From a virus, in UHGV virus genome UHGV-0287696: DNA of 64,000 bases; one strand, given 5' to 3'. Each line of letters begins with the position of its first letter. Position 1 is the stretch's first letter. The notes below the pieces were generated by a model, which was not told the origin of the DNA, did no database searches, and saw only the letters and a program-made list of their open reading frames with translations. Of the stretch, positions 5,831 through 37,622 are shown in pieces. Both the position numbers and the translations under genes were made by a program.

Positions 5831-5840
5831 TTTTTACAAC
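5831..5840 (+). promoter_or_regulatory. TTTTTACAAC motif (candidate second promoter class)
   Basis: Exact 10-mer also at 32079 and 37613, each 20-45 bp upstream of a start codon. Confidence 0.25.
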
Positions 5841-5859
5841 ATTACGAAAGGTAATGAAA

Positions 5860-6021
5860 ATGAACGAATATCAAATACAGATGTTCAATACCGCGATGCG
5901 AAATCGTGAGAAACAAATTCAGTTTAACCAACGCATGGACGAATATGTTCGTCTCGGCCTCGTTGCGGCACCGAAAACGGTTAACAACCACAATGTTCAC
6001 CAACCACCTGTAAGGAGATAA
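5860..6021 (+). CDS. small basic protein, tandem paralog 3 (53 aa)
   Basis: ATG at 5860 after GAAAGG; MNEYQIQMFNTAMRNREKQIQFNQRMDEYVRLGLVAAPKTVNNHNVHQPPVRR; track start 5806 is an upstream GTG. Confidence 0.4.
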   Translation: MNEYQIQMFNTAMRNREKQIQFNQRMDEYVRLGLVAAPKTVNNHNVHQPPVRR

Positions 6022-6163
6022 GTTACTAACTAATAAAGGGGGTGTTGCTACCACCCCCTGCTTAGTTCGGTAGTTGTTTTCCATTCATAATTAATAGTCT
6101 TCTGTTTTTTTTTGCTTTCCGAGACGCATAAGGGGTTATAGGGGGAGCCGAAGCTCCCCAGAC

Positions 6164-7726
6164 TCAAAAGAGTTCGTCACCCATGCCGCCGGTAAATACG
6201 TTAATCGACGAGGCTGTTACAGTTTCTTCTTTATCACAATCCCATGGCAAAATGCCAACATCACGGAAAGGTATTACAGTATAATGATAAGCTTCTTTGG
6301 TATCAATAATTGTACGGTGTTTACCGCGTTGTACTTCTAAATAGCTGTGTCCGCTGACGACACGTTTGTTAAAATACATCTCACCGTCAGCTTCGTTGTC
6401 TAAGCTAGAGCAGTTGTCGTAAAGACCACGACCAGGTAAGCTCTTACAGAAACTTGCTGGGTCGAGTGCTTTTAATTTTTTGCCTTCTGGTGAGATTTGG
6501 TGTGGTGCTAAGAGGAAACCACGATTACGTACCACTTGGATGTTTCGCGCGATACGATAAATTTCTTTAATGTCACTACCCGCAATACCGTTACCGTGCC
6601 CTGCTTTGCTGATAGTACCGAAATAGTCTCCGCGTATTCCAGCTACATGATAACCTCGACGTTTTAAATCTAAAATCAAATCATTCAAATAGTGAATTTT
6701 AAAATCGGAGTTTGTGTGTTTTTGGAAAATATACTCCCAACCGTTTGCCCGCATTTTACTACAGAGGTAATCTGACATTTGTGCATTGTGTAGCGCTTTT
6801 TCTTCGTCAGTTGCCGTTTCAGGTGCAACCATTACCGGAGCTGTACCTTCAAAGTGTCCGTAAAGTGCTTGATACGCGTAAGCCAAGTTAACATCTAATT
6901 CGTTTTCTAAACTTAAATCCAGAATAACCGGTTGTAAGTCACCTTTAACATTTGCCATCACCTTTTCTGGGGTGTTGAATACAGGAATGCTAATAGAGAG
7001 CAATAAACTGAATAATGACTTACAGTTAAAAGGAAGAGCAGGCATTAGCCAGAGTTCTTCGGTGATCCCTTTGTTACAACCGAGCATTTGGTTAATTGCT
7101 TTCCAGCCCGTACGTAACCCGTTCCCTGCTGCTTTCTTACTGATAGAGTCGAATACATGTACGAAGGGTGCTTTATTGTCAGTAATCAATTCCCCTACCA
7201 GAGAAGGAATCTTATTATGAGAGCGTTCACTGAACGTGGATAAGGTATCCTTAAGGTCGTTGAGCGCCGTTTGTAAATCAACACGCGTTTCAGTGCCGTT
7301 CAGTGCGCCTAACGTACGACCCAATTTTTGTTTCAGTTGTACGCCTTGAATAGCTTGACGTAACTGAAAGTAGTATTGTGCTACTTGGCGATTAAGATGC
7401 TCGATGCGTGCTTCTGGTTCTTCTGGAATATCATCTTCCAGGAATTTGGTAATCGTATCGTATAGAGGACGTATTTGCGTAGTGGCCAGTTTCAAACGTT
7501 TCATGACGTTTGTGTGGTCGTAAGGCATACCGCCGTCTATGATGGATGTGATGATATCCTTGATTTCGACGAGGGCGGCACGTTCGTCACCTTCTTCTGC
7601 GTAATCAGGAAGCTTAGCCTCTAACAGCACTTTTCTTATGATGTCGTGGTCCTTTTCAGGATCGGTCAGAAGACTTTCAGCGTATAATGTGGCTAAGGCG
7701 GTTATCAACATCATTTTGTTATTCAT
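6164..7726 (-). CDS. hypothetical protein (520 aa)
   Basis: Long - strand ORF; RBS AAGGA upstream of ATG at 7726; no motif recognised. Confidence 0.6.
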   Translation of the reverse strand: MNNKMMLITALATLYAESLLTDPEKDHDIIRKVLLEAKLPDYAEEGDERAALVEIKDIITSIIDGGMPYDHTNVMKRLKLATTQIRPLYDTITKFLEDDIPEEPEARIEHLNRQVAQYYFQLRQAIQGVQLKQKLGRTLGALNGTETRVDLQTALNDLKDTLSTFSERSHNKIPSLVGELITDNKAPFVHVFDSISKKAAGNGLRTGWKAINQMLGCNKGITEELWLMPALPFNCKSLFSLLLSISIPVFNTPEKVMANVKGDLQPVILDLSLENELDVNLAYAYQALYGHFEGTAPVMVAPETATDEEKALHNAQMSDYLCSKMRANGWEYIFQKHTNSDFKIHYLNDLILDLKRRGYHVAGIRGDYFGTISKAGHGNGIAGSDIKEIYRIARNIQVVRNRGFLLAPHQISPEGKKLKALDPASFCKSLPGRGLYDNCSSLDNEADGEMYFNKRVVSGHSYLEVQRGKHRTIIDTKEAYHYTVIPFRDVGILPWDCDKEETVTASSINVFTGGMGDELF

Positions 7727-7739
7727 GGAGCATCCTTAA

Positions 7740-8264
7740 ATGCAAATTCGTTTTAGTCCACCGTGGGAAGTTCAACCTAACATAGATAAAGGCGCTGCCG
7801 TTAAAAGTATAGAATTGCTCCAGGCAGGGTTCTTTAACTGGTTATATGACTGTCCGAATGGTTTCAGTTCTATTATCTTACCTGAAGTAAGTCGTTCTGC
7901 TATTTATAAAGCACTGATGGCTCCGCCTGTGCTTCCAGGTAAATATTATGATCAGGTGTTACGTCTGGTCGAATCAGGCGAAAAGGTTTCCCTTGACGAT
8001 TTATATGGGGAAACAATTCCTTGTCGCGTACGTTGGGTGTTTACTCAACGTGGTGATACGATTGTGGCGTCATTTGCAGAAGCGAAGTCCGGTTCGGGTT
8101 TTTCTTCGGGTGAAGACCACGCTGCGAAAAAGATGTTCTGCGCAGAACTTTTTAAATATATGCGTACCAAGACTCGCGTCGTGGATGACTGCTTCAGTAC
8201 CTCAACGCAGTTTGCCGCTAACGAAGTGCTGACGCAATTATACGCATGTCATTTATCTCATTAA
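7740..8264 (+). CDS. hypothetical protein
   Basis: ATG at 7740, 13 nt from the divergent start at 7726; GGAG upstream. Confidence 0.55.
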   Translation: MQIRFSPPWEVQPNIDKGAAVKSIELLQAGFFNWLYDCPNGFSSIILPEVSRSAIYKALMAPPVLPGKYYDQVLRLVESGEKVSLDDLYGETIPCRVRWVFTQRGDTIVASFAEAKSGSGFSSGEDHAAKKMFCAELFKYMRTKTRVVDDCFSTSTQFAANEVLTQLYACHLSH

Positions 8265-8276
8265 GGTATTAAACAA

Positions 8277-10571
8277 ATGAAAGATACCCGAATCTCTAAT
8301 CTGGAGAAACTCGTACAAGCTGGTAACTCGCTGGTACAAAGCGTCATTAGTAACAACAGTGCTGGCGAAATGTGGAACACCATCGTTGCTGGTGAGTCTG
8401 TACGTAGCAACACGAAAGTTTTTGGTACCCTGCGTGACGATGCTGCACAGCACTACGCAAACGCGTTTGCTGGCGGTAAGAAAATGTCCCACGCTGCGGA
8501 AGTTGCTTCTGCAATGATTCTGGGTGCTGCTGGCCACGGTATGGACCTGCAAGAAAAAGTAGCGCAAGAATACGCTAAGCCAGAATTCCATAGCCGTTTT
8601 AACCTGGACGTTGCGATTCCTGGTTCCCAAGCTGGTAACGGCGACTGGGGCAAAGAGCGTATGGTTGTTGCTCAGGAATACTACACCAACAAAGATTACG
8701 ACAAAAACCTGGGTCTGACCTGGACGCTGAACGTACGTGCTCTGGAAACTCAGTCTCGTTTCGCTGAGACTCTGTTCCCGACCATCACCGTTGACACCAA
8801 CGATGTTGGTATTACCGTACGTACCAAAGTGACCACCGTTTCTCGTGGTGTCATGCACGCGTTACTGACCAAAGACGTTGTTGAAGATCATCGTCGTAAC
8901 CTGCACGAAGCGCTGACCGACCACACCGTTCTCCAGGACGAAGCGATCAACATCGTTCCTTACGTAATGGAAACCGGTGAAAACGCTGAATACTTCGTAA
9001 GCGAAGAACTGGTACCGAACGAATCTGTTCGTCTGGGCCGCGTACCTCCGTACCCGACTAACTACCTGAGCTTTGCTAAAGACACTCTGAACCTGTTCCA
9101 GCTGTCTGCGCATCCGGGTATCGTTCAGGAAGGTTACGACGAAACTGATGAAATCGCACCGGGTTGTGCTCTGGGCAGCCTGCTGATTTCCGTACGTAAA
9201 CCGACCGAAGAAGCGAAAGCAGGTAAATTCATCAAACTGCACGTTCGTGACATGCAGTTCGCAACCTTCCAGCGTCCTGCTGAAGGTGATGGCCGTGAGC
9301 TGGTACTGCAATTCCGTCGTACTGCGTTCTCTCTGAATGCGAAAACCACCGACTGGAAAGGCGAAGCTATTCCGGCACTGAAATCACTGGAACAGAACTC
9401 CTACACCCTGCGTTATGTGATCACCATCAACATGTCTCTGTTCACTACCGGTCAGTTCGGTGGTAAAGTTGACATCGCTGGTCACAAACTGGAAATCGAA
9501 GGTCTGTACGACGCTACTGGTAACAAAGTTGATACCAAATCTGGTACCGGCAAAGTTATCCTGGACGGTCTGAAACTTGAACTGATGGGCTGGCGCTTCG
9601 ATGGTACTCGTACCAACGAAAACCGTCGTACCCAGGGTCTGCTGCTTGACCCAATCTGGGAACAAGAAAACTACAAACTGCAATACGGTTCTCCGATCCT
9701 GACCAAGTCTCCGGTTGGCGTTGAATACGACGATACCGAACGTCTGGACGACCTGATTTCCGCAGTTAACATCCGTAACGAACAGCTGGCTATCACTCAG
9801 ACGCTGTCTTACACCGAAGCGGTACGTAACGCTGCTGCAAGCATGATCACTCCGTGGGACAAACCGGCCATTCGTGGTCTGGGCCGTCACTGGGTTGCTC
9901 CGTGGTTCAAAGAGTCTGACTACAACGTTGATGAAGTTGTACAGTCCCTGGATACCAAAGATGCACTGATCAACGCTCGTCAGGGCCTGGTACAGCGTAT
10001 CGGTAATCAGGTAACTCAGGCTATCCAGGAATCTCGCTTCATTCCTGCGCTGCGTCTGTACACTGCCGATCCGGACATTCTGCCGAAAGTTGTTATTGCA
10101 ACTGACGAACCGACTGCATCTATGCTGCTGCTGGTACAGGGCGACCAACGTCTGCTGGGCGATCGCTACGAATACGAAGTGATCACCACCAACGATGACC
10201 GCTGGCGTATCTACAACGCAGCTGACGGTTCCTGGACTCGTCGTCTGCAATGGTTCCTGAAAGTTCCGACTGCGGACGATGGTTCCTACAACGTGCTGAA
10301 CTGGGGTAACCACTTCTGGTCTCCGATCATGGTTACCAACATCAACATTCAGCGTAACGGTTCTACCTCTAAAGAGCTGGCCGTACAGCCGCGTAACGCG
10401 CACATCTGTCACTGCCCGATCACCGGTCTGATCTGGGTTAAAGGCATCACCAAACTGGTTGAAGAAAAACTGGCTTACAATGTTTCTGTTGAACAGAACG
10501 GTCAGAAACAAACCGAAGGTGGTGTAGCAGGTAACGTTGCTGGCGAAGGCAAAGCTGCTGCTGGTAAGTAA
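8277..10571 (+). CDS. major virion structural protein, most likely major capsid protein (tail sheath not excluded)
   Basis: 764-aa ORF with strongly optimised codons (ctg, cgt, ggt, aaa), strong downstream terminator; size matches the ~750-aa capsid proteins of phiKZ-like phages; no search run. Confidence 0.5.
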   Translation: MKDTRISNLEKLVQAGNSLVQSVISNNSAGEMWNTIVAGESVRSNTKVFGTLRDDAAQHYANAFAGGKKMSHAAEVASAMILGAAGHGMDLQEKVAQEYAKPEFHSRFNLDVAIPGSQAGNGDWGKERMVVAQEYYTNKDYDKNLGLTWTLNVRALETQSRFAETLFPTITVDTNDVGITVRTKVTTVSRGVMHALLTKDVVEDHRRNLHEALTDHTVLQDEAINIVPYVMETGENAEYFVSEELVPNESVRLGRVPPYPTNYLSFAKDTLNLFQLSAHPGIVQEGYDETDEIAPGCALGSLLISVRKPTEEAKAGKFIKLHVRDMQFATFQRPAEGDGRELVLQFRRTAFSLNAKTTDWKGEAIPALKSLEQNSYTLRYVITINMSLFTTGQFGGKVDIAGHKLEIEGLYDATGNKVDTKSGTGKVILDGLKLELMGWRFDGTRTNENRRTQGLLLDPIWEQENYKLQYGSPILTKSPVGVEYDDTERLDDLISAVNIRNEQLAITQTLSYTEAVRNAAASMITPWDKPAIRGLGRHWVAPWFKESDYNVDEVVQSLDTKDALINARQGLVQRIGNQVTQAIQESRFIPALRLYTADPDILPKVVIATDEPTASMLLLVQGDQRLLGDRYEYEVITTNDDRWRIYNAADGSWTRRLQWFLKVPTADDGSYNVLNWGNHFWSPIMVTNINIQRNGSTSKELAVQPRNAHICHCPITGLIWVKGITKLVEEKLAYNVSVEQNGQKQTEGGVAGNVAGEGKAAAGK

Positions 10572-10584
10572 TCTTGCTTAAAAA

Positions 10585-10630
10585 GAGTCTAAGCCCTTCG
10601 GGGCTTAGACCTTTTATTTTTTTTTTCTTT
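10585..10630 (+). terminator. intrinsic terminator
   Basis: gtctaagccc-ttcg-gggcttagac hairpin followed by a ~19-nt T-rich tract. Confidence 0.75.
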
Positions 10631-10754
10631 CTATTATTTTTTGGATAGATATTATTAAAGGGAGACGGCCAGTTGGTTTTAAAGGAGTATGTATGGAAAA
10701 AATACAGTTTAAACTAAAGATATGTGTCATCATTAAAATTTAGCTTGGGTTCCC

Positions 10755-11765
10755 ATGAAACGTCTTGATATTGATGTGGTGCCCAGTATCTCTGAACGCT
10801 CGTTATGTCAAACGTCTGGATTGAGGAAACTTGTTACGTTTGAAAATAACACTGGCGTGCCTATCCACGTCACTGAAACCAGTGGCGGTAGCTTTATTTT
10901 AAATGCTTCGAAAAACCCCGCTGATGAGCATGGGGTTATCGTTTACGTGACGTATCAATCATACGGAAGATGCGCGAATCTCAATGGGTTTGCTGAACTG
11001 ATGCCGGGAAAACAGTTTTCTCGCTTTTGCGACCAATTGAAAGAAAAAGGGGAGGTAACGTTAGAGTATGCAGTAAACGACGTTGGTGCGTTGCTGCGAG
11101 GAGATTTGGTTGTACTAAAGCAGTTAGGCTTTGCTTTCTCAACAACACCGATACGCTTAGATAGTAAACCCCCAACTATGCGCCCTGGAGGTGAGCGCAC
11201 TGAATTTACATTGGGTGTTGTTGTTGTGCAACGCTACGACGAGCCTGACAATTATCGGTGGCTACGTTTCTACGGTACGAAAATGAAAATCGAACCAATA
11301 ACGTCACGCTATTATGAACCGGGCGTTTACATGATAATAGGAGGTGGAACGAGGGTGGAAGGGAGTCGAATGATTCATTTTGAATTTGACGACATTACTT
11401 CACCGTTTAGATTATTTAAGGATGAGGCAGCGGCGGACGCGTTTCGATGGCAAGAAGCAGTTCCCGGTCTCTTTGAGATTAAGCAACGTTTAGAGGAGCA
11501 GTACAAAGAAAAATTAGAAAGCTTGGATTCGGCAAAAGACAAGTTAGAATTGGAACACAAGAAACAACTACAGAGCATGGCTTTAGAAAAGGAGCGATTG
11601 ACTTTAGCATTCAAGCAACAGGAATTGGAAGCGAAGTCACGGGCTGAGGCGCGTAAAGAATTCTACGAGACGCGTTCTTACATTCGTAAGGACGGCTCAG
11701 ACCTATTTAAATCTGTCCCTGCGTATTTGGCGGCGGGTGTCGCTTTTATAGGGATGCTAACGTAA
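10755..11765 (+). CDS. hypothetical protein with C-terminal coiled-coil and hydrophobic tail
   Basis: 336-aa ORF; C-terminal heptad-like KEKLESLDSAKDKLELEHKKQLQSMALEKERL and terminal AYLAAGVAFIGML. Confidence 0.5.
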   Translation: MKRLDIDVVPSISERSLCQTSGLRKLVTFENNTGVPIHVTETSGGSFILNASKNPADEHGVIVYVTYQSYGRCANLNGFAELMPGKQFSRFCDQLKEKGEVTLEYAVNDVGALLRGDLVVLKQLGFAFSTTPIRLDSKPPTMRPGGERTEFTLGVVVVQRYDEPDNYRWLRFYGTKMKIEPITSRYYEPGVYMIIGGGTRVEGSRMIHFEFDDITSPFRLFKDEAAADAFRWQEAVPGLFEIKQRLEEQYKEKLESLDSAKDKLELEHKKQLQSMALEKERLTLAFKQQELEAKSRAEARKEFYETRSYIRKDGSDLFKSVPAYLAAGVAFIGMLT

Positions 11766-11775
11766 GGAGCATGGC

Positions 11776-13551
11776 GTGTTTAAAGATGCAATCAAAAAGC
11801 TTAAAGAGAGTGGTAAAATAGTACCCTTTAACCGTGCGATTGCGGAAGGAGTCGGTTATACACAAGCCAAAGATGGTATTCACGATCGTGTACATCGTAT
11901 CTTGAAACGTGAGCTAGATTACCATCCTGTAGAGAACCCTCGTGTTCCTGAAGGCTTGGCCGTGTTGGGTGTTCGTTTAATGTCGCCGTTCGAAACTTTT
12001 ATCTATAAGCTGTCTCGTTCAGAGAGCAGCAGGATGGATAAACGTCGTGGGGTGATGTCTATCGCGAATACCGATGCGTATATGGTCATGTCGTCGTTCC
12101 GTATTCCTGGAGACTCAAGACCAATCTCAAGACCGATTAACTTGCCTTTCATTCGTCGTGGTGGGTTGATGAACTATTACGGAACAACGTATCATGTTGC
12201 ACCTGTTATTCATCAGCCGGGTATCTGTCGTGAGCACGGTGGGGTGTTTGTTAATTTTGACTTTAAACGTAAAGCGTCATTAAAATTCTGTAAGCACCCG
12301 GTACGGATTTTAGTGAACGGGAAGAAAGAAGAATTGTTCTTGCCCGGAACAAACAATTTGTTTAAAGCCAAAAACGCCACACATCCTGACACGGACGAAA
12401 AGCCGTTAATGTACTGGCTATTCGGACGTTATGGATTTAAGGAAGCCATCAAACGTTATACTGGCGTGGATGTGGAGATATACCCTGCATTCAAAGTACC
12501 TGAAATCGATCTCGATAAAAAAGTAGTAATCAGTTCAGGTGAGCCTAAACATAATCGGACGATTATGTACGTAGTGACGGTTCCTGCAGAGGCTTTACCA
12601 AATCTCGATAAAGCGGGATGGGATCAAAACGAGCACTTATTACTCGTGGCGATTTCTGCATTCTTTAAAGCAGCGCACTATTATTGCGGAAAGCAAGCGA
12701 TTAAAAACGGCAACGTTGTTCCTTTACCGCCGTTGTTTACCGCGATTAACGAACTTGCAATGGAGGACGATGTTGTAAACCTGAATTCCTCCGCAATTTG
12801 GCGGGAGATTTTGGGGAGAAGTATTGTTGGACTTAAACCGTCCGATATTGAACTGGCACACAGCATGACGAAACACTATACGGAGTGCGAACGCTACGTT
12901 AACTCAACATTCCGTGGTGAGTTAATGATGTCAGATCCCGATATCCCGGACGATATGGATATGTTTGATTTCTTCTGGTACGCGACGAAGTTGATGGTGA
13001 GAACACGCCTTACGAAACAAGGCGATATTCCGTCAATGTATGGAAAACGTCTGACCGTAACAGATTACCTGTTATTGGGTGAGCGTGGCTTTACGCCTAC
13101 CATCGCTGCGATTCGTTTCCACTTGGGACAAACGGAGAATAGAACACCGGAGTCTTGTGCGAACATGATACGCAGTGCGTTGAATAAAGACATTGTAACT
13201 AGCCTGGTATTACGCAACATTACCGGCAATGGCGGTGTAAGTTATTTCAACGCTTCTACCGAGTCTATGGTGCTGGGGGTTTCAACCCATGCTATCAGCC
13301 AGACAGAAACAGAATCTAAACGTAACAGCAAGGGCGGTAAGACGGTTAACCTTAATGACCGGACAAAACATGCCTCTGCATCTCATCTGGAATGTGGTAA
13401 CGTGTATTACATTCCGAAATCATCACCGTTTAAATCGGGTATTCTCAATCCGTATATGAAGACGAACACCCAACTGGTGATGGTACGTAATCCAAAACTC
13501 AACGAGTTGATCCAAGCAACCGAAGAAGACATTGCGAAGATTGGCCGTTAA
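11776..13551 (+). CDS. hypothetical protein (591 aa)
   Basis: GTG start with AAGGAG 6 nt upstream. Confidence 0.55.
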   Translation: MFKDAIKKLKESGKIVPFNRAIAEGVGYTQAKDGIHDRVHRILKRELDYHPVENPRVPEGLAVLGVRLMSPFETFIYKLSRSESSRMDKRRGVMSIANTDAYMVMSSFRIPGDSRPISRPINLPFIRRGGLMNYYGTTYHVAPVIHQPGICREHGGVFVNFDFKRKASLKFCKHPVRILVNGKKEELFLPGTNNLFKAKNATHPDTDEKPLMYWLFGRYGFKEAIKRYTGVDVEIYPAFKVPEIDLDKKVVISSGEPKHNRTIMYVVTVPAEALPNLDKAGWDQNEHLLLVAISAFFKAAHYYCGKQAIKNGNVVPLPPLFTAINELAMEDDVVNLNSSAIWREILGRSIVGLKPSDIELAHSMTKHYTECERYVNSTFRGELMMSDPDIPDDMDMFDFFWYATKLMVRTRLTKQGDIPSMYGKRLTVTDYLLLGERGFTPTIAAIRFHLGQTENRTPESCANMIRSALNKDIVTSLVLRNITGNGGVSYFNASTESMVLGVSTHAISQTETESKRNSKGGKTVNLNDRTKHASASHLECGNVYYIPKSSPFKSGILNPYMKTNTQLVMVRNPKLNELIQATEEDIAKIGR

Positions 13552-23541: not shown

Positions 23542-23582
23542 TAACCTCTACCTTCGGGTAGAGGTTACTTCTTTTTATTTTT
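23542..23582 (+). terminator. intrinsic terminator
   Basis: taacctctacc-ttcg-ggtagaggtta followed by cttctttttattttt. Confidence 0.7.
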
Positions 23583-23627
23583 ACAATTTTTAAACATACT
23601 GTGAGACTTAAAAGAAGGAGTGCTATT

Positions 23628-24281
23628 GTGGAACCATTACGCTTAATGACCAGAACGTTACTGATACCTATTCAGGAGCTGAAGGTTGGACCGTTGGTCA
23701 CCTCTAATGGGGAAATTGTTGATTTCGTTAAAGAGGAAAAAATTCTTACGGCGGCTTTTCAAGAGACGCTCCATCGCTATTATCGTGCAGTACCTTTATC
23801 CGGCAGTCTAGATTGTCCGGGTGTAGAGGGGAGTACGTCTGCGTTAATAGCGGAGCATTTAGAAAAGAAAGGGTTTGGGGTCGGGAAAGGACAGGTTTTT
23901 GTAGACACTGCCACACTGAACAAATACCAAAACGACCTAATGTTACAGATAAGGAGATTACTTGCCAGTTATGGTCTTTTCTCGATTAATTGTAAGTTTG
24001 ACGACGTTCGGATGTTAGACCACGGTTTTACTACCAGCCTTAAAATCTGTCGTGGTAAAAGATTCATACAGTTTACCTGGTGGGTGCCGTCCCTACGTGG
24101 TGAGAGAAAAACGGTGGAAGGGCTGTATGGTTGGGCTTTATGGGCCGAAGTTCCAGTAACGAAACTCGATGCGATTATTCCACAGCATCGAAACGTTCCA
24201 CTTAGCAGTTTATTTACTTCTGGTGGGAACACCACGTGGGATGAATTTGTTAAAAACGTTTTATCGATAGGGGAACAATAA
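23628..24281 (+). CDS. hypothetical protein
   Basis: GTG at 23628 with AAGGAG 7 nt upstream (track start 23601 is an earlier GTG). Confidence 0.45.
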   Translation: MEPLRLMTRTLLIPIQELKVGPLVTSNGEIVDFVKEEKILTAAFQETLHRYYRAVPLSGSLDCPGVEGSTSALIAEHLEKKGFGVGKGQVFVDTATLNKYQNDLMLQIRRLLASYGLFSINCKFDDVRMLDHGFTTSLKICRGKRFIQFTWWVPSLRGERKTVEGLYGWALWAEVPVTKLDAIIPQHRNVPLSSLFTSGGNTTWDEFVKNVLSIGEQ

Positions 24282-26364: not shown

Positions 26365-26393
26365 ACTTCACAACTTCAGTATGGAGGTGACAA

Positions 26394-30131: not shown

Positions 30132-30170
30132 ACCCCTACTTAACGGTAGGGGCGGGTTTCTTTTTTTATT
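30132..30170 (+). terminator. intrinsic terminator
   Basis: cccctac-ttaacg-gtagggg followed by cgggtttcttttttt. Confidence 0.65.
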
Positions 30171-30215
30171 GTAAATTATTACAACTGTTACCCTCATTGT
30201 GAGAGGTTTCACTTA
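30170..30215 (+). promoter_or_regulatory. degenerate promoter-like element (ATTATTACAAC...GTGAGAG...CACTTAAC)
   Basis: Partial match to both the early motif and the TTTTTACAAC motif, upstream of the kinase gene. Confidence 0.25.
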
Positions 30216-30240: not shown

Positions 30241-30864
30241 ATGCTTAAGACAGTGTCTATTGATGGTCCTGACTTTTCTGGGAAATCAACGTTGTGTAAA
30301 ATGGTAAAAGCGATGTTGGAATCCGCAGGATTAAAAGTGTGTATTCGGAACCATCCGACGTCTGAAACTGAGGCGGGAATTCGTGCACGCAGTTTGGTTG
30401 TACAGTCTGCCTCGAAAACAAAAATTGCTGAAGCAATGTGTGATGACTTCCTTCACACGTTAGACCATGTTGTTGACGAGTACGATGTCGTTATTTTCGA
30501 TCGTTTTTGCCCTTCAACGATTGTTTATCAGGGGACAGATGGCAAGGACGTAGTTTTCCAACGTAAGCTAACTCGTCATTTCCATACACCAGACCTTTAT
30601 ATTTGGACAGATGTTGATTACCCAACAGCGTTAGCGCGATTTAAGAAACGTGTAGAAGAACAAGGTAAGAATTGGGACGATGAGGTACTTACGGTTAAGT
30701 ACCTAAAGGACAACCAATCTTGGGATGGCTTACGCGACCATTATCGTTTCGCGCATCACATCTTAACAGAAGGAGGTTGTCTTCACGCATTATTACCAGT
30801 AACGCAGAATGACGATTACCGTTTGAAAGCCGCTGAGATTGTTACGCACATTTTAGCAAACTAA
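30241..30864 (+). CDS. P-loop nucleotide kinase, thymidylate/dNMP kinase-like
   Basis: Walker A at the N-terminus: SIDGPDFSGKSTL (compare Tmk IEGxxGxGKST); size 207 aa. Confidence 0.45.
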   Translation: MLKTVSIDGPDFSGKSTLCKMVKAMLESAGLKVCIRNHPTSETEAGIRARSLVVQSASKTKIAEAMCDDFLHTLDHVVDEYDVVIFDRFCPSTIVYQGTDGKDVVFQRKLTRHFHTPDLYIWTDVDYPTALARFKKRVEEQGKNWDDEVLTVKYLKDNQSWDGLRDHYRFAHHILTEGGCLHALLPVTQNDDYRLKAAEIVTHILAN

Positions 30865-30870: not shown

Positions 30871-30909
30871 AGGTACCACCGTTGGGTGGTACCTATATTT
30901 TATTTTTTC
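30871..30909 (+). terminator. intrinsic terminator
   Basis: aggtaccacc-gttg-ggtggtacct followed by atattttatttttt. Confidence 0.7.
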
Positions 30910-30937
30910 TCAGATATATTTTACTTAGGTGAGAGTT
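30909..30937 (+). promoter_or_regulatory. conserved early-type promoter motif (variant CTCAGATATATTTTACTTAGGTGAGAG)
   Basis: Copy 2 of the motif, immediately after a terminator and ~50 bp upstream of the HTH gene. Confidence 0.5.
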
Positions 30938-30984
30938 ACAACTAACTCTTTACACCGACTTGTTAACCTAAAGGAGTATTTACA

Positions 30985-31344
30985 ATGGCTTACAATCACA
31001 ATTCCATCGTTCTGGCAAAACGTAAATTCGGTCTTCACTTGTCTTACGTAATTCGTCATTTGACCACAAAAGACATTACTCAGCGTGAACTTGCCCAGCT
31101 TGCGAAAGTTTCACAACCTGTTATCTCGTCTATTAAGAACGATCACTCAGAACGTTTAAGCTTGCCGATTATGATGAAAGTTGCTGATGCGATTCGTCTG
31201 AAATACCAGATTAGTTTTAATTCCGTTAAGGGTCGTTGCTCAGTAACCGTTCACGTAGAGTCCGCGTTGGACTACGTTGCAAACACGTCCATTAAACGCA
31301 CCACGAAGAATGTGTGTTTTATCACTAACGCCGCAACGCACTAA
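30985..31344 (+). CDS. helix-turn-helix DNA-binding protein (putative early regulator)
   Basis: ITQRELAQLAKVSQPVISSIKN fits the XRE-type HTH pattern; first gene after a promoter motif; RBS AAAGGAG. Confidence 0.45.
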   Translation: MAYNHNSIVLAKRKFGLHLSYVIRHLTTKDITQRELAQLAKVSQPVISSIKNDHSERLSLPIMMKVADAIRLKYQISFNSVKGRCSVTVHVESALDYVANTSIKRTTKNVCFITNAATH

Positions 31345-31365
31345 TCAACCTGAAGGAGTATTATC

Positions 31366-32037
31366 ATGCCACCGAAAATTGGTAAAACTGTAATTGAAGA
31401 AACTGTAAAGAACGAGACTAAAGTTAACGAAGCACAACCGCCTGTGAAAGTTGAGCTTTTACCCTGCGTTAATGAAATACTCGGGGTGAAATTCTTAACT
31501 TTTAGCCCGTATACTGACCTGGTTTTCGAACTTTATCAAGACCAGCCTTTCAACTTATTCACACTTGTCTGCACTTATAATGGTGATGTTTTGGCGGTTG
31601 CACCTGGTCTCAATAGAGACAAATTACTTACAGGCACGGTTATTACTGAAATTCTTCTGCGGTTAATGCATAAGTTTGAAGGGCCTGAACTTGACAAAAT
31701 CGCTGTTAAGTTAGCGGACTTGCTAATCAATGCCGCCACCTGGTTGTGTTTTAACCCTTCTATCTATTTCCATTTCAGTACAAATATTCTTCACGCCGTA
31801 ACAGACGACGGTAAAAAGTATCGCATCTTAATTAAGGGTGGGGTGCAACAACCTTTGTTCTCTAGACAAAACTGCCATATTAAGTTTTCGCCTGACTTGG
31901 TAGAAGTTTACGGCCAGCGAGCAGCGGCTGGCCACTACGACGCCCATCTCAGATTTTTCAATTACCTGTATGAAAAATTAGGGAAAGCTGGCTTGACACC
32001 CAATCTTGCTTTTACAAACTCTGCCCCTTCTGCATGA
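31366..32037 (+). CDS. hypothetical protein
   Basis: 223-aa ORF with RBS GAAGGAG. Confidence 0.5.
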   Translation: MPPKIGKTVIEETVKNETKVNEAQPPVKVELLPCVNEILGVKFLTFSPYTDLVFELYQDQPFNLFTLVCTYNGDVLAVAPGLNRDKLLTGTVITEILLRLMHKFEGPELDKIAVKLADLLINAATWLCFNPSIYFHFSTNILHAVTDDGKKYRILIKGGVQQPLFSRQNCHIKFSPDLVEVYGQRAAAGHYDAHLRFFNYLYEKLGKAGLTPNLAFTNSAPSA

Positions 32038-32049
32038 TGTTTAATAATT

Positions 32050-32083
32050 GGGGAACTTCGGTTCCCCTTTCTTTTTTGTTTTT
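32050..32083 (+). terminator. intrinsic terminator
   Basis: ggggaac-ttcg-gttcccc followed by tttcttttttgttttt. Confidence 0.7.
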
Positions 32084-32088
32084 ACAAC
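32079..32088 (+). promoter_or_regulatory. TTTTTACAAC motif
   Basis: Exact copy of the 10-mer, 44 bp upstream of ATG 32132. Confidence 0.25.
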
Positions 32089-32131
32089 TTTAGCGTATTG
32101 TTTTGAGACGACCTTTTAAGGAGTAATTAAC

Positions 32132-33130
32132 ATGGCTTTTATGAAGATTATAAAACATACCGCCACGGATTTAACAGTAGGTCGGTTAGCACGTAGAGAT
32201 ATTCGCAATCCTCAACTTCAGACATGTTTATCGGGCCCTAACGGTGCTGTGATTCGTGAGGCGTTGTGCAATAGTGAACTGAATACGTTCTCTTTACAAA
32301 AAGGAAAAACAATCCAAGGGTTTATCATCACAAAACACATTTACGGCGACCCAACGTTACACTGCTTGTATATGCATGAAATTGTACCGGGTTGTTTGAA
32401 CAAACTGAACCTGTTACTGGTACTCGACTATACCGGTTTTACGTATCTTAATCGAATCGCCAGTGGTGTAGAAGAAATCGCTGAGCTTAATGACTTAGGA
32501 TTTAGACACACCCACACTACGTATCGTTTAGGTACACGCTCGTTATTGGATATCGCTCTACCAACAAACGTGAAGAACATCTCCGGCGATTTTTATAAAG
32601 AGCTAACCGCTGCACAACGTGAACAGCTTATGTTGCTTTTGGGTACGAGTGTCGTTGAAAACATCAACGGTGACCCTGTAGGTCGCACACGACAAATCAT
32701 GCCACAAGTCGAAACGTTGGTGGAGTTAGTACGTCATGTCAACCACCACACCTACGTTTGGATGGATGGCAATGATATTGTGGGCGCGGTGCAAGTTAAA
32801 TTGCGTAATCTTAACGAGTGTGAATTAAAAGCCATTGCGGTAAGTGAGACACATCGGGGTCGTGGTATCGGACGGACTTTATTGTATCGTGCTCTACAAA
32901 TTGCATCGACAACAGCGGCACCATTAGAGATAGGGTGTTTCAATAACAACCCTGCATTCAGGCACCTGGCCGTCGAATTATTTAAATTTCGCCCCTACGA
33001 ATACGAACTTGTTTTAGTGCGTGACGAAAACGTCGTCAGTTGGGAGCGTCAGAAAAATCATGTCAGATTGGTGTTAGTCGACGAAGTGTCATCGTTACAA
33101 GGCGGATATAATGCGGAAACCGATAATTAA
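32132..33130 (+). CDS. protein with C-terminal GNAT acetyltransferase domain
   Basis: C-terminal motif A AVSETHRGRGIGRTLLYRAL; N-terminal ~200 aa unassigned. Confidence 0.5.
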   Translation: MAFMKIIKHTATDLTVGRLARRDIRNPQLQTCLSGPNGAVIREALCNSELNTFSLQKGKTIQGFIITKHIYGDPTLHCLYMHEIVPGCLNKLNLLLVLDYTGFTYLNRIASGVEEIAELNDLGFRHTHTTYRLGTRSLLDIALPTNVKNISGDFYKELTAAQREQLMLLLGTSVVENINGDPVGRTRQIMPQVETLVELVRHVNHHTYVWMDGNDIVGAVQVKLRNLNECELKAIAVSETHRGRGIGRTLLYRALQIASTTAAPLEIGCFNNNPAFRHLAVELFKFRPYEYELVLVRDENVVSWERQKNHVRLVLVDEVSSLQGGYNAETDN

Positions 33131-33926
33131 ATGGATGGGTGGGAAAACACGCGTTTTGGGTGAATTACAAAAGGTCTTACCTAAACGTACAACCTTTGTA
33201 GAACCGTTTGTGGGCGCAGGGTCTGTTTTCCTAAATACGAATTACAGCCGGTATATTCTATCGGATTCTAACCCCGATTTGATACGCTTACTTTGTGTTG
33301 CGCGTGAACAGCCTGAAGAACTGATCGCTGCGTCGCAACCGTTGTTCTTAGACGGTAATACCACTGTAAAGTATATGGAACGTCGTGAACTGTTTAATAG
33401 CGGTAAAACGATGTCCGAAGTTGAACGTGCTGCAATGTTTTTATACTTAATGCGTCACGGCTATAACGGGATGTGTCGCTATAACAGTAGTGGTGGATTC
33501 AATGTTCCGTTTGGACGTTACCCGAATGGCGTTTATTATCCATTAGAAGAAATTCGGGATTGGGCTAAACGTTGCGCAGAAGTTGAGTATCTGGAAATTG
33601 TTTGTGAGGACTTTCGTTCTGTATTAGCACGGACACCTGAAGATGCCGTGATTTATGCTGATCCTCCTTATATTCCGTTATCGGATACCGCGAAACACGC
33701 TCAATATCACCGTAAAGAATTCTCACAAACGGATCATCGGGAATTAGCCAAGTTACTACAGCAGCAGGTGGAACGTGGCAACAGCGTCGTGCTGTCAAAT
33801 GCAGACACCCTACTCACCCGAGAAATTTATTACGGTTTTGAGTGGCGCAGTATTGAGGTTGGTCGCTATATGGGTGCGTCTGGTGCCGCTCGGAAAACAG
33901 TGACTGAATTACTGGGAGTGCTCTAA
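33111..33926 (+). CDS. dam: DNA adenine methyltransferase (Dam family, N6-adenine)
   Basis: SAM-binding motif I FVEPFVGAGSV, catalytic DPPY (YADPPYIP), N-terminal IIKWMGGK typical of Dam; 271 aa. Confidence 0.8.
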   Translation: MRKPIIKWMGGKTRVLGELQKVLPKRTTFVEPFVGAGSVFLNTNYSRYILSDSNPDLIRLLCVAREQPEELIAASQPLFLDGNTTVKYMERRELFNSGKTMSEVERAAMFLYLMRHGYNGMCRYNSSGGFNVPFGRYPNGVYYPLEEIRDWAKRCAEVEYLEIVCEDFRSVLARTPEDAVIYADPPYIPLSDTAKHAQYHRKEFSQTDHRELAKLLQQQVERGNSVVLSNADTLLTREIYYGFEWRSIEVGRYMGASGAARKTVTELLGVL

Positions 33927-34699
33927 TGCGCATAGTGGATATCCACGATTATCGTAATGACCATTTAGCAATCGGTGTGGATGGCAAAATGGTTTCGCTA
34001 ACCCGTGTACGGAAAGGGTTACTGGAAAAGGACGTCATTCGCGAATCTGAAGATCCGACCTTTATCATTCTTTCGAACACGAATCAGCTACAAGGAATCT
34101 TCTCCGGCCGTACCGATGGTAAGTTTTTCTACATGTCGGCAATCGTTATGGTTGAGAAGAAGAAAATTAATTTCGCACAACTCAAACGGTTGTTAAATGT
34201 GGAGGTGTTTGATATCACCTACCCTGCCAACGACCTAAAACGTCGTGATCAGTTAATGATGTTTTTGGGTATGCAGCCGACGTCTATCGACTATGACCTG
34301 ACGTTTACTGAAGAACCCGAAGTTTGCACCGATTTACCTGATGTAGTTGACATTGAATCTCTAACGTTAGAAGAAACGTTTACGATTCCTAAGGTGGCTA
34401 ATGTCAGTTTGGATACGTACTGCCTGGGTTTGTTAGCGATTGGGGCTGCCGAAGGGCTGTGCTGCCGTAAAGATGGTAAAGTTGAAGGTATCTTAGTCTA
34501 TTCGAAAATCAACGAAAAGACGTTTGCCACCGAAGGTTTCTTCTATAACGATTGTACTTACGGGAATGCACTCTTAACCACATACTGCCGTATTGCGTAT
34601 TTAAAGGGGGCAACCGTGCGTCTTACTTTTCCATATTCAGCACCTCCAGCGATGTCTGGTGTTGAAGCAGAAGCATTAACTGGCCATTTTATCTTTTAA
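33926..34699 (+). CDS. hypothetical protein
   Basis: 257-aa ORF, ATG overlapping the upstream stop. Confidence 0.5.
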   Translation: MRIVDIHDYRNDHLAIGVDGKMVSLTRVRKGLLEKDVIRESEDPTFIILSNTNQLQGIFSGRTDGKFFYMSAIVMVEKKKINFAQLKRLLNVEVFDITYPANDLKRRDQLMMFLGMQPTSIDYDLTFTEEPEVCTDLPDVVDIESLTLEETFTIPKVANVSLDTYCLGLLAIGAAEGLCCRKDGKVEGILVYSKINEKTFATEGFFYNDCTYGNALLTTYCRIAYLKGATVRLTFPYSAPPAMSGVEAEALTGHFIF

Positions 34700-34708
34700 G
34701 GACATTGA

Positions 34709-34936
34709 ATGGAAATCAAACGTATTGTAACCAAAGACAAAAAGATTACTTACGTCGCAGGTGATAACGAATTCTCGGCGGTTATTAATACTGAGAACGT
34801 GCTGATTATCGGTTATCCAGGTAAAGTCATTACTCGTAGCCATCAGCGCGTGATTGACAAGCTCATCGCCAAAGCAAAAGCGCGTGACGGTGTTGGTTCA
34901 GTAGAAACCCATACCGGGTTAACGTTGGCACTCTAA
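34709..34936 (+). CDS. hypothetical protein (75 aa)
   Basis: ORF with AAGGA RBS. Confidence 0.4.
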   Translation: MEIKRIVTKDKKITYVAGDNEFSAVINTENVLIIGYPGKVITRSHQRVIDKLIAKAKARDGVGSVETHTGLTLAL

Positions 34937-34974
34937 CCAGCAGGTAATATGACCTCTTAACTGGAGACTTAGAG

Positions 34975-35481
34975 ATGAAAGAGACTCTGGATTTTAATCA
35001 GCTTGAGCAGCACGATTTTGATCTCGGTGTTCGCGACTTAGAAGCTGACTATGAAACGCGTTGTAAAGAATTCTTTAATCGCTACGGGCAATTGATTACC
35101 GGGGCATCTGAAGACACCGAATTCTCGTTAGACGATTTCGAAAAGATTCTATCTTGCTTTATCACCGACAGCTTAGCGAAACAGGCGTTGCTGGTAGAAC
35201 AGAACCTGCAAATGGTGGAGCCTACGGATGCTCACGCCGTGCTAAAAGAATCCATTATTCCGAACGACGAAATTATGGATGCGGTAGCAGGTATTCGTGG
35301 TACGTTCGACAGCGCTGTGGAAGACTATACCGAGCAGCTTCGTGAGTCTGGGCTAACGTTGTGTGCACCTGCGGGCGAACAGTTACCTTCTGAAGAAGAA
35401 ACGGAAGAAGCACGCAGTCGTTTAGCGCGTTATGTGATTACTTCGATTTTAGTAGACGATCGCGAAGAAAACGTACTGTAA
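34975..35481 (+). CDS. hypothetical acidic protein
   Basis: 168-aa ORF, RBS GGAGA. Confidence 0.5.
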   Translation: MKETLDFNQLEQHDFDLGVRDLEADYETRCKEFFNRYGQLITGASEDTEFSLDDFEKILSCFITDSLAKQALLVEQNLQMVEPTDAHAVLKESIIPNDEIMDAVAGIRGTFDSAVEDYTEQLRESGLTLCAPAGEQLPSEEETEEARSRLARYVITSILVDDREENVL

Positions 35482-35486
35482 ACTTA

Positions 35487-35525
35487 CCCTCTCTCCGTTT
35501 GGAGAGAGGGAGTATTTATTTTTAC
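35487..35525 (+). terminator. intrinsic terminator
   Basis: ccctctctcc-gttt-ggagagaggg followed by T-run; near-identical hairpin at 36551. Confidence 0.7.
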
Positions 35526-35579
35526 GCTTTCGTGTCTAATTATGCACACGTAAACAAAATTAATTGAGGAACAGCTTAA

Positions 35580-35915
35580 ATGTGGTTAAGTGCGATTCAC
35601 CGTGATTTACCAAAACAAGAAATGGTATTTACCGTTGGGGAACCAGCAACTGTAGTAGGTGTTGCTAAGTTCGAAAGGGTGGAAGAAGGTCAATTCGTCG
35701 TAGTAGACGACAACGAGAACGAATTCATGTTGTTCCACCCTGAGGTCGATACCTCTGAAATCTGTGAGGGTTCTCTTTTGTTGTCCTGGCAAGATCCTGA
35801 AACCGGTGCATGGAAGTGGCGTGTCGCTAAACCGACGCTTGAAACAGAATCTGCATACGTGACTGAACACGTATACGTGTTTGGGGAAACTTATGTCGAG
35901 CCAAAACCACACTAA
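35580..35915 (+). CDS. hypothetical protein
   Basis: 111-aa ORF with GAGGA RBS. Confidence 0.45.
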   Translation: MWLSAIHRDLPKQEMVFTVGEPATVVGVAKFERVEEGQFVVVDDNENEFMLFHPEVDTSEICEGSLLLSWQDPETGAWKWRVAKPTLETESAYVTEHVYVFGETYVEPKPH

Positions 35916-36201
35916 TACCGATGAAACGAATTTACAGCGCTTGCAACGGGCACTAACTGCACCGCTAGGCGGTGAGATTCACGAACGTTGGGTAATTGCG
36001 AGGGTGGTAGAAATTGACTATTCTCAGGATCAGTTACTGTTAAACAACTGCTCGACGAACGTGTCTTTCACGTTACCGCGCGCTGTATTCCGTCTTACGC
36101 CCAACGTTGATGAAATACTGACTATTGACAGGAAACTTCTGTCGATAGAACTACAGCATTTCCCGCTACCTGGTAAGTCGGTTAACATCGCGCTATACTG
36201 A
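35893..36201 (+). CDS. hypothetical protein
   Basis: ATG at 35893 (track start 35881 is TTG); overlaps the upstream gene end. Confidence 0.4.
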   Translation: MSSQNHTNTDETNLQRLQRALTAPLGGEIHERWVIARVVEIDYSQDQLLLNNCSTNVSFTLPRAVFRLTPNVDEILTIDRKLLSIELQHFPLPGKSVNIALY

Positions 36202-36218
36202 TAATTGTCTAAAAAATT

Positions 36219-36257
36219 TAAGATATATTTCATCTATGTGAGAATTCTCACTTAACT
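36219..36257 (+). promoter_or_regulatory. conserved early-type promoter motif (variant) with downstream palindrome GTGAGAATTCTCAC
   Basis: TTAAGATATATTTCATCTATGTGAGAATTCTCACTTAAC; copy 3, upstream of ATG 36275. Confidence 0.45.
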
Positions 36258-36274
36258 AAATGGAGTAATCTAAA

Positions 36275-36544
36275 ATGGGTAAGATTTATATTGTTGAAAA
36301 ACGTGCAGGTAATGTTCTTTCCTATTACGAAGAAGGTAAACCTGAAAAGGTTAAAACACTCAAACTCGACGGCTTCAATGTGAAGAGTTTACGTAAGGGT
36401 GTGAAGATTACCTTTAAAGGTCTGATTCGCGCAGGTAACTTGCAGATTGTTAAGGACGACGGCACGATGGTTGCGTTAGCACCGGCCAGTGCTGCGAAAA
36501 CGACAGCAGGTTGTGGCTGCTACGGTAGCAGTCGTAAGATTTAA
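36275..36544 (+). CDS. hypothetical early protein (89 aa)
   Basis: Strong RBS context; follows the promoter motif; followed by terminator. Confidence 0.5.
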   Translation: MGKIYIVEKRAGNVLSYYEEGKPEKVKTLKLDGFNVKSLRKGVKITFKGLIRAGNLQIVKDDGTMVALAPASAAKTTAGCGCYGSSRKI

Positions 36545-36550
36545 GCAGTG

Positions 36551-36590
36551 CCCCTCTCTCCGTCTGGAGAGAGGGTACTTTTATTTTTCT
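36551..36590 (+). terminator. intrinsic terminator
   Basis: cccctctctcc-gtct-ggagagaggg followed by tacttttatttttctt. Confidence 0.7.
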
Positions 36591-36602
36591 TCGAGGTGCG
36601 TG

Positions 36603-37091
36603 ATGACAACGGTATTAGTAACAAAGGATTACATTTTAGCTGACCGACTTGTGGATTATGCTGGTACGGTTAAAGAATTGCCCAAACTGCATAAACACAA
36701 AAACAAGTTTGTTTTCTACACGGGTGAACGTGTACTGGACACCGAGTTTTGGAAAATGTCGATTACCGCTGCTATAGAAAAATATTTAGACGAGGATAAA
36801 CGTAAGAAAGTTGAGCCCCTGTTTGCAGATCTTATCGAAAAAGAGCGAATATACGATCAAATCGTCATTTTTACGGCTAGAGAAACACATTGGTTGACGT
36901 TAGTAGCAGATAAGTTTAAAACGTTTGTAATAAATAAAAATGCGGTTTGGACAACGGGTTCTGGTGGCGGCTTTGCGCGGGCTGCTTGGGCAACTGGAAT
37001 ATCAGAAAAGAAAATTATGCCATTGGTAGGTTCTATTGATCCATCTAGCTCGACCACCTATGACTTATTTTACAGGAAGCACTTACGATGA
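36603..37091 (+). CDS. HslV/proteasome-like Ntn-hydrolase (putative)
   Basis: ATG 36603 (RBS GAGGTG); predicted N-terminus M-TTVLVTKDYILADRLV places Thr directly after Met as in HslV (TTIVSVRR...); GSGG motif (WTTGSGGGFARAAWATG) where HslV has GSGGxYAxAAARAL. Confidence 0.35.
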   Translation: MTTVLVTKDYILADRLVDYAGTVKELPKLHKHKNKFVFYTGERVLDTEFWKMSITAAIEKYLDEDKRKKVEPLFADLIEKERIYDQIVIFTARETHWLTLVADKFKTFVINKNAVWTTGSGGGFARAAWATGISEKKIMPLVGSIDPSSSTTYDLFYRKHLR

Positions 37092-37609
37092 AGATAAACG
37101 CTGTCTTAATTGGCGATGAAATATTCGTTAATACAAAAACACAATATCTGTATTACGAAGGTATTACTGTAATAGACGATTATTACGGTAAGTACGGTTG
37201 GTGGATTCCGTCCCCTAACTCCTTACGATTAGAAGAAGCATTAACTGCTGAAGAGAACAAACTAGAAGGAGAGTGGACTTATATTAGTTCTATAATTGAT
37301 GTTAGTGGACGTATTAAAGACGTCTACTGGGCTAAAGAGTCAGGGTGGCGTGTTACGCTACACCAACCAACACCAGTAAGATTGTTGTACGACCATTCGG
37401 ATAGTTCAGAGTTAGCGTTTACCATTGAGACGCTCTCGGTACGTAAGGATCTAGACAACGTAGGGAAAGGGAAGTGGTCTATTGAGCGCATTGAGGAGAT
37501 TCTCAGCCACTTTAAAGCTAACAACCAATTTAAACGTTGGTGCACATTACCTGAGTTAGTAGAGGAGTTGAAAAAGCGGGATTGCAAACCGCTACCTTTT
37601 AACCCGTAG
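37088..37609 (+). CDS. hypothetical protein
   Basis: 173-aa ORF overlapping the upstream stop (ATGA). Confidence 0.5.
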   Translation: MKINAVLIGDEIFVNTKTQYLYYEGITVIDDYYGKYGWWIPSPNSLRLEEALTAEENKLEGEWTYISSIIDVSGRIKDVYWAKESGWRVTLHQPTPVRLLYDHSDSSELAFTIETLSVRKDLDNVGKGKWSIERIEEILSHFKANNQFKRWCTLPELVEELKKRDCKPLPFNP

Positions 37610-37612
37610 TCT

Positions 37613-37622
37613 TTTTTACAAC
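37613..37622 (+). promoter_or_regulatory. TTTTTACAAC motif
   Basis: Exact copy, 34 bp upstream of ATG 37656. Confidence 0.25.

Follow-up and report, generated by a model that had tools for sequence, protein, structure and literature searches.

A probable bipartite middle promoter, usually joined to a terminator, in an SPN3US-like jumbo phage

The 64,000-nucleotide stretch of the virus genome UHGV-0287696 (UHGV) that was analysed here, hereafter the window, carries exact copies of the 10-mer TTTTTACAAC at positions 5831, 32079 and 37613, all on the plus strand. Judged by its sequence, the functional unit is not the 10-mer but a bipartite signal, in which a tract of four to six T residues is joined directly to TAC and is followed after exactly 15 nucleotides (nt) by T(G/A)TG. 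The 10-mer probably constitutes the upstream box of a bipartite promoter for the multisubunit non-virion RNA polymerase (nvRNAP) of the phage, and would be the counterpart in the SPN3US group of the phiKZ 'middle' promoters. A first-pass annotation of the window had suggested a second, middle or late, promoter class, and this is supported by the conservation of the fixed spacing at orthologous loci, by the spacing and strand specificity found in Salmonella phage SPN3US and by the geometry of the phiKZ promoter P78M.

The comparison included the window, SPN3US, the Erwinia phages Asesino and Stratton and four closer IMG/VR relatives, at four loci and in up to eight genomes. In Asesino, Stratton and SPN3US the corresponding intergenic regions have one layout in common: a terminator hairpin, a T-tract, TAC, 15 nt and TGTGA. 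Pairwise identity at the four loci is complete for TAC (63/63) and for the four-base core (84/84), with the spacing fixed, and amounts to 0.43 in the spacer and 0.30 in the 10 nt downstream. The form of the core is locus-specific across genera, TGTG upstream of the phrog_8034, thymidylate kinase and GNAT-like genes and TATG upstream of the gene at 35580. The sites at 5831 and 37613 have no orthologues in SPN3US, Asesino or Stratton. The sites in the window are as follows.

23542-23604, plus strand: putative terminator-promoter unit upstream of gene 23628-24281 (hypothetical, phrog_8034), with hairpin 23542-23567, T-tract and TAC 23568-23584, a 15-nt spacer and TGTGA 23600-23604.
30133-30202, plus strand: putative terminator-promoter unit upstream of the thymidylate kinase gene 30241-30864, with hairpin 30133-30152, box TTATTAC 30176-30182, a 15-nt spacer and TGTGA 30198-30202.
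32050-32106, plus strand: putative terminator-promoter unit upstream of the GNAT-like gene 32132-33130, with hairpin 32050-32067, T-tract and TAC 32069-32085, a 16-nt spacer and the core TTTGA 32102-32106.
35487-35545, plus strand: putative terminator-promoter unit upstream of gene 35580-35915 (hypothetical), with hairpin 35487-35510, T-tract and TAC 35513-35525, in which TTTTTAC is 35519-35525, a 15-nt spacer and TATGC 35541-35545.
37610-37639, plus strand: candidate promoter upstream of gene 37656-38051 (no known family), with TCTTTTTTAC 37610-37619, the 10-mer 37613-37622, a 15-nt spacer and AATGA 37635-37639.
5831-5857, plus strand: doubtful member, with TTTTTAC 5831-5837, the 10-mer 5831-5840, a 15-nt spacer and AATGA 5853-5857.

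The sites at 23578 and 30176 are strong candidates for full and conserved members. At the former a variant of the 10-mer occupies 23578-23587, the predicted start point (+1) is G23603 giving a leader of 25 nt, and TAC-N15-TGTG is kept in relatives L038-L040, Asesino, Stratton and SPN3US with a diverged spacer. At the latter the predicted +1 is G30201 with a 40-nt leader, and the unit is kept in L018, L019, Asesino, Stratton and SPN3US. In L017 and L020 it is replaced by the end of another upstream gene and a hairpin with TTTTTTAC in its loop, 115 nt before the gene for thymidylate kinase, indicating a turnover of these cassettes through gene insertion. Equally strong is the case that 35519, which reads TTTTTACGC...TATGC, belongs to the same class; its predicted +1 is G35544, the leader would be 36 nt, and TAC-N15-TATG is kept in L041-L044, Asesino, Stratton and SPN3US. 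The site at 32079 has the exact 10-mer at 32079-32088 and a predicted +1 at G32105. The locus has the canonical TAC-N15-TGTGA in L014, L015, SPN3US, Asesino and Stratton, and a G-to-T change and one extra nucleotide are common to the window, L013 and L016, so that the site would be a derived variant with the box retained. The site at 37613 is a plausible member, with a predicted +1 at G37638, an 18-nt leader containing the ribosome-binding site and no terminator hairpin; in relative L012 (86% identity) TTTTTAC-N15-AATGA is retained, with AAC changed to GAA and an insertion or deletion upstream of TAC. The membership of 5831 is doubtful. A start at G5856 would give a leader of 4 nt and leave the ribosome-binding site upstream of the start, and its relatives are all at least 97% identical and too close to be decisive. 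An extra A in these relatives indicates that the first ATG there is not the start codon.

The region around 5831 is also repetitive. Between 4990 and 5870 a module occurs three times (starts near 5043, 5364 and 5760), each time upstream of a tiny open reading frame (ORF), and the third copy contains 5831. In every copy a terminator is followed by a 9-bp inverted repeat (CTTTAACTT...AAGTTAAAG), GCAG and a second hairpin, the sequence of which varies between the copies, and also in L021 and L022, with the pairing kept and with no match in Rfam. The module may represent a structured RNA, or else a small-gene cassette that was duplicated.

The close variants of the 10-mer noted earlier do exist, one base further on than first placed, as TTTTTACAAT at 23578 and TTATTACAAC at 30176. 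The five sites all lie in intergenic DNA ahead of plus strand ORFs, and the distances from the end of the 10-mer to the start codon are 19, 40, 55, 43 and 33 nt in order of position, which agrees only roughly with the 20-45 bp given before. A sixth site of the same class, TTTTTACGCT at 35519, was missing from the earlier list. Five of the six read TACAAC or TACAAT, indicating that the 10-mer is a lineage-specific extension of the box and not noise; in SPN3US the AAC is replaced by GTC, GTT or GCT. The proposed check against shuffled sequence gave a divided answer. Three exact copies compare with a mean of 0.60 in dinucleotide shuffles, of which 2/100 had at least three, and with one mismatch allowed the window has 11 copies against 13.1 expected, i.e. 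no enrichment. As a 10-mer the finding is real but statistically marginal, and the 10-mer was rejected as the functional unit on the lack of one-mismatch enrichment and on the AAC not being kept outside this lineage. TTTTTAC is not over-represented overall (18 copies against 24.9 expected), and on the plus strand 6 of its 10 copies lie inside intergenic DNA, which makes up 7% of the window.

The bipartite signal was counted in the whole genome of SPN3US, joined from six pieces, and in 50 kb of Asesino. The pattern of a T-rich tract, TAC, a spacer and TGTG[AT] occurs five times in SPN3US with a spacer of 15 nt and zero or one time at each other spacing from 8 to 23, and with the 15-nt spacer it is absent from the minus strand of SPN3US. 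In a conditional test, T[AG]TG was counted at offset 15 from a T-rich tract with TAC as the anchor, and a Poisson probability was calculated against the background. The count was 12 against 0.49 in SPN3US, all on the coding strand (P = 3e-13), and 6 against 0.09 in the 50 kb of Asesino (P = 5e-10). In the window it was 2 against 0.31 (P = 0.04), or 4 against 0.75 with AATG allowed (P = 0.007); the window alone is weak, and the class is established through the relatives and through orthology. A weight matrix made from SPN3US only places the window positions 35523 (the site at 35519, best in the window), 23582, 37617 (the site at 37613, third best) and 30180 at ranks 1, 2, 3 and 5 of 128,000, and all four are intergenic and on the plus strand; 5831 has a score of 9.2 and rank 8. 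The minimal pattern TAC-N15-TGTGA without the T-tract was discarded, since its information content is too low and it is not enriched in any of the genomes.

A G+C-rich hairpin followed by a T-run, as in an intrinsic terminator, is found directly upstream of 23578 (-17.6 kcal/mol, z -7.0), 30176 (-17.2 kcal/mol, z -2.8, with 8 nt separating the T-run from the box), 32079 (-12.9 kcal/mol, z -3.0) and 35519 (-20.8 kcal/mol, z -5.6). The hairpin at 5831 is weak (z -2.1) and there is none at 37613 (z -0.4). The fusion to a terminator T-run claimed for the 10-mer sites consequently holds at 23578, 30176 and 32079, weakly at 5831 and not at 37613. The accompanying idea of a terminator-restart signal is borne out, as most sites lie directly 3' of an intrinsic terminator and share its U-tract with the promoter. 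It might be argued that only the terminators are functional, with TTTTT as the U-tract and with ACAAC and the downstream TGTG or TATG due to chance or composition. The terminators of the window do share the tail TTTATTTTT, the 10-mer is marginally enriched and not at all with one mismatch, TTTTTAC is not over-represented, and a matrix null attains similar maximum scores. Nevertheless TAC and T(G/A)TG are invariant at 15 nt across genera with the spacer diverged, the peak in SPN3US is spacing-specific with the P value of 3e-13 given above, 5/13 SPN3US sites and the site at 37613 have no hairpin, and TAC is missing after most other terminators of the window, which makes this explanation very unlikely. 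The terminator accounts for the T-run at the four sites with a hairpin, not for TAC or the distal T(G/A)TG. Among the SPN3US sites 8/13 follow a strong hairpin and 5/13 do not, and a tract of four to six T is joined to TAC in 13/13; the T-tract is thus part of the signal, since it is there also without any hairpin.

The tail TTTATTTTT(T) is common to the window terminators at 3524, 4773, 10600, 15560, 23542, 30871, 35487, 36552 and 50030, which often have a GNRA/UUCG-like CTTCGG loop. Those at 35487 and 36552 have near-identical stems, CCCTCTCTCC...GGAGAGAGGG.

The sequence identifies the phage as an SPN3US/Asesino-like chimallivirus jumbo phage. In tblastn its capsid is about 80% identical to those of the Erwinia phages Asesino and phiEaH2/Stratton and of SPN3US, the gene order is syntenic with all three, and a homologue of PHIKZ123 is encoded in the window; the assignment to the chimallivirus type follows from these three findings.

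11776-13551, plus strand: homologue of PHIKZ123, a subunit of the phiKZ non-virion RNA polymerase (PDB 7OGP chain E, E = 8.8e-18; phrog_2943 'polymerase', E = 3.7e-171).

The 764-residue protein encoded at 8277-10571 matches the family of the phiKZ-type major head protein, and other large proteins of the window match jumbo-phage virion, helicase and 'polymerase' families. The genes are tightly packed and nearly all on the plus strand, and scans of the window with Rfam and for tRNAs gave no matches. Phages of the chimallivirus type have two multisubunit RNA polymerases of their own and separate early, middle and late promoters (PMC7598289). The split-subunit nvRNAP expected of a phage with phiKZ-type middle promoters is represented in the window by 11776-13551, the syntenic SPN3US has several RNA polymerase beta-like subunit genes, and the enzyme class of the PHIKZ123 type is the one expected at the promoters described here.

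The closest known system is the middle promoters of phiKZ, which have the motif 5'-AAanTTACc-3' centred at about -24, and of which P62M and P78M also have a correctly placed TATG (PMC4666361). In the late promoters of phiKZ the G of TATG is the start site (PMC4666361), and by differential RNA sequencing (dRNA-seq) the middle class was seen as the motif TACT, the centre of which lies 22 nt before primary transcription start sites (TSSs) (PMC8244752). In the phiKZ sequence P78M reads AAAATTAC-CAAATGTGTTAAATA-TATG, and its geometry TTAC-N15-TATG(+1) is that of TTTTTAC-N15-T(G/A)TG in the window and its relatives. At all conserved sites the TAC is invariant, usually as TTAC, and lies exactly 15 nt from T(G/A)TG, in agreement with the TTAC box some 19-24 nt before the start that marks a phiKZ-type middle promoter. 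Both groups belong to the phage family with two multisubunit polymerases and have their sites in intergenic DNA on the coding strand, and the leaders would be about 20-40 nt here compared with 31-40 nt as a rule in phiKZ (PMC8244752). TAC is followed by a purine here (AAC in this lineage) but by C or T in phiKZ, and most units are fused to a terminator, unlike those of phiKZ. Only some phiKZ middle promoters have TATG, whereas box and start motif are tightly coupled here, making the class predictable from sequence; 50 kb of phiKZ shows no spacing peak, with P78M alone fitting. Compared with the late promoters of phiKZ (T(-3)ATG(+1), recognized by the nvRNAP of five subunits), TATG or TGTG is found at the predicted start here in a form that is constant for the locus across genera, and a conserved upstream box is present that the phiKZ late promoters lack. 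Each position of TATG is needed there in vitro (PMC4666361), while here G at -2 is in the majority and AATG or TTTG occurs in weaker candidates.

By analogy with phiKZ T(-3)ATG(+1) the final G of T(G/A)TG would be +1, with TAC at -21 to -19; we infer this start, the nvRNAP as the enzyme and the middle timing. The signal read would be the tract of four to six T with the invariant TAC, usually extended to TACAAC or TACAAT in this lineage, and T(G/A)TG exactly 15 nt on. At most units the U-tract of the terminator would be the T-tract of the promoter as well, so that transcription from upstream would be halted and then restarted under separate control, giving leaders of 18-40 nt with the ribosome-binding site inside. 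The enzyme would be the nvRNAP, probably together with a middle-specific factor recognizing the TTAC box as proposed for phiKZ, where an additional factor has been suggested for the middle promoters (PMC4666361, PMC10612078). A bolder version, to which we give slightly less than even credence, is that the SPN3US-like middle promoter is a terminator-promoter cassette predictable from sequence, with one shared T-tract, TTAC at -22 to -19 and a rigid 15-nt spacing to T(G/A)TG, read by a single assembly of the nvRNAP with a gp68-like subunit or a middle factor; the rigid spacing would then imply that this one assembly contacts both blocks.

The genes downstream of the sites are non-structural. In the window one site precedes a hypothetical gene that heads an acetyltransferase cluster, another precedes thymidylate kinase and a third a GNAT-like gene with a DNA methyltransferase after it; the SPN3US set has an exoribonuclease and an SMC-like protein as well. 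The box is absent upstream of the structural genes of SPN3US, and these two observations fit a middle class. A late class could not be defined from the regions upstream of the SPN3US structural genes, because TATG often falls on their start codons.

Several points weigh against the proposed promoter class. The statistics from the window alone are weak, and a literature search found no transcript 5' ends or kinetics for SPN3US-like phages. The maxima of the matrix have no advantage over Markov-simulated sequence, which reaches similar scores; the matrix score alone is for this reason not evidence, and the useful information comes solely from position, strand and the conditional spacing test. 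The SPN3US site at 173076 has a TATG that overlaps a start codon and may be there by chance, and 5831 and 37613 have AATG instead of T(G/A)TG, the RNA from 5831 being nearly leaderless. Before TTAC phiKZ has an A-rich tract, where the window, SPN3US, Asesino and Stratton all have a T-rich one (four to six T). Any substitution in TATG reduces phiKZ transcription in vitro (PMC4666361), G at -2 being the commoner form here. Purified phiKZ nvRNAP, finally, does not use the middle promoters in vitro (PMC4666361).

This last result could be taken to mean that the 'middle' 5' ends arise by RNA processing, with an endoribonuclease of the host or the phage, guided by UUUUUAC, cutting read-through RNA at U(G/A)U|G. 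The authors of PMC10612078 left this open for the middle transcripts of phiKZ, the motif is confined to the transcribed strand, and SPN3US encodes ribonucleases, one of them downstream of such a site. On the other hand, the phiKZ TACT motif lies upstream of primary TSSs enriched by TEX (PMC8244752), most sites come just after strong intrinsic terminators that would leave little substrate, and a strict bipartite signal with an unconserved 15-nt spacer would be typical of recognition by a polymerase or at the DNA level and not of known RNase sites. We regard processing as unlikely. A similarly low probability is given to the sites being operators, or other binding sites of a phage regulator such as the helix-turn-helix (HTH) protein 30985-31344, and not core promoters. 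The gene for this DNA-binding protein does lie between 30176 and 32079, work on phiKZ predicts a factor for the middle promoters that binds DNA or the nvRNAP (PMC10612078), and, should this factor be an activator that recognizes the TTAC box, the two models would overlap. The two conserved blocks form, however, neither a dyad nor a direct repeat, position and strand relative to the genes are strictly promoter-like, and the downstream block is a known nvRNAP start-site motif, making a pure operator role improbable.

TTTACA or TTTACG might also serve as the -35 element of a host sigma-70 promoter, as TTTACA has one mismatch to the -35 hexamer and TGTGAnnnn superficially resembles an extended -10 region (TG, and A at hexamer position 2). 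However, the hexamer GAnnnn, located 17 nt downstream, has no T at position 1 or 6, and a scan of 22-40 kb for the consensus (TTGACA and TATAAT, 16-18 nt apart) gave 22 sigma-70 sites compared with 30.9 in shuffles, with none at these positions on the plus strand. In addition phiKZ-type phages transcribe without the host polymerase, which ignores the phiKZ nvRNAP promoters (PMC4666361, PMC7598289). A sigma-70 origin is therefore extremely improbable.

The late promoters of the AR9 nvRNAP (AACA-(6N)-TA/G) are used by a related polymerase family and, like the signal described here, have a short motif near the start. Recognition in AR9 is through uracil in the template strand and depends on uracil-containing DNA (PMC5449584, PMC9209446). 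An AR9-type late promoter was rejected, as AACA is not conserved at -11 to -8. The box that is conserved in the present sites is found at about -20. In the middle promoters of T4, which control genes for replication and nucleotide metabolism, a MotA box near -30 replaces the -35 element, and transcription is activator-dependent and uses the host polymerase by sigma-70 appropriation. The bipartite logic is alike, with an upstream box at a fixed distance, a phage factor and a start-proximal element, but the sequences and enzymes are unrelated.

Other motifs were noted in the window. A 23-nt motif of early type, AGATATATwTTACyTAGGTGAGA, is intergenic and on the plus strand at 3690-3712, 30912-30934, 36221-36243, 50073-50095 and 53876-53898, with a weaker variant at 10644-10669, and is kept in Asesino, Stratton and SPN3US ahead of the gene for the HTH protein. 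These sites are probably early promoters of the virion RNA polymerase, as their architecture of an AT-rich box, 6 nt and G matches the AR9 early consensus AAATATATATTAT-(6N)-G (PMC5312081). Like the bipartite signal they have TTAC and GTG, with a gap from TAC to GTG of 4 nt compared with 16 nt. At 57294-57311, just before gene 57319, TTTTTAC, 4 nt and TGTGAG resemble the 3' half of the early motif, and TATGCTGGC at 57262-57275 is found also upstream of a virion structural gene (gp128) in SPN3US. Upstream of a DprA-like gene, at 26377-26387, a terminator is followed by a conserved (C/G)TATGGAGG without a TTAC box, where SPN3US has TATAGGAGG; the orthologous regions are L001 27280-27347, L002 26368-26452 and L003 26718-26790, and in relatives the region upstream of the neighbouring gene has a conserved TATGA. 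Such sites with TATG only may be promoters of the phiKZ late type. On the minus strand at 7807-7781, inside the plus strand gene 7740-8264 and 56 nt upstream of the start of a DnaB-like helicase, CTTTTAAC-N15-TATG is kept in all four phages with AAC in place of TAC. Its conservation is by itself uninformative because it lies in a coding region, and a variant helicase promoter is possible. Finally, the ORF of 1532 residues at 42272-46870 matches dozens of tail-fibre families in repeated stretches, suggesting a mosaic fibre rich in repeats, and is far longer than its syntenic counterpart, the tail protein of Asesino and SPN3US.

We take the signal to be a real regulatory one, and its best interpretation is a variant, peculiar to the SPN3US group, of the middle promoter of phiKZ, in most cases joined to a terminator; it extends a known system with low surprise and is of moderate practical value. 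As a compact and conserved element it could be used for pull-down and in vitro work and for annotating transcription units in related genomes, and the terminator-promoter cassettes could serve as insulated expression parts. The signal of the SPN3US/Erwinia-phage branch is sharper than that of phiKZ, with an invariant TAC, a 15-nt spacer, a conserved start motif and about 12 sites per genome, and it bears on the early-to-middle switch of phiKZ-type phages, in which purified nvRNAP ignores the middle promoters (PMC4666361, PMC10612078). According to a review the middle and late promoters of these phages are not predictable bioinformatically (PMC7598289). If the cassette version is true it would contradict this view, and it would provide a clean bait for the middle-transcription factor.

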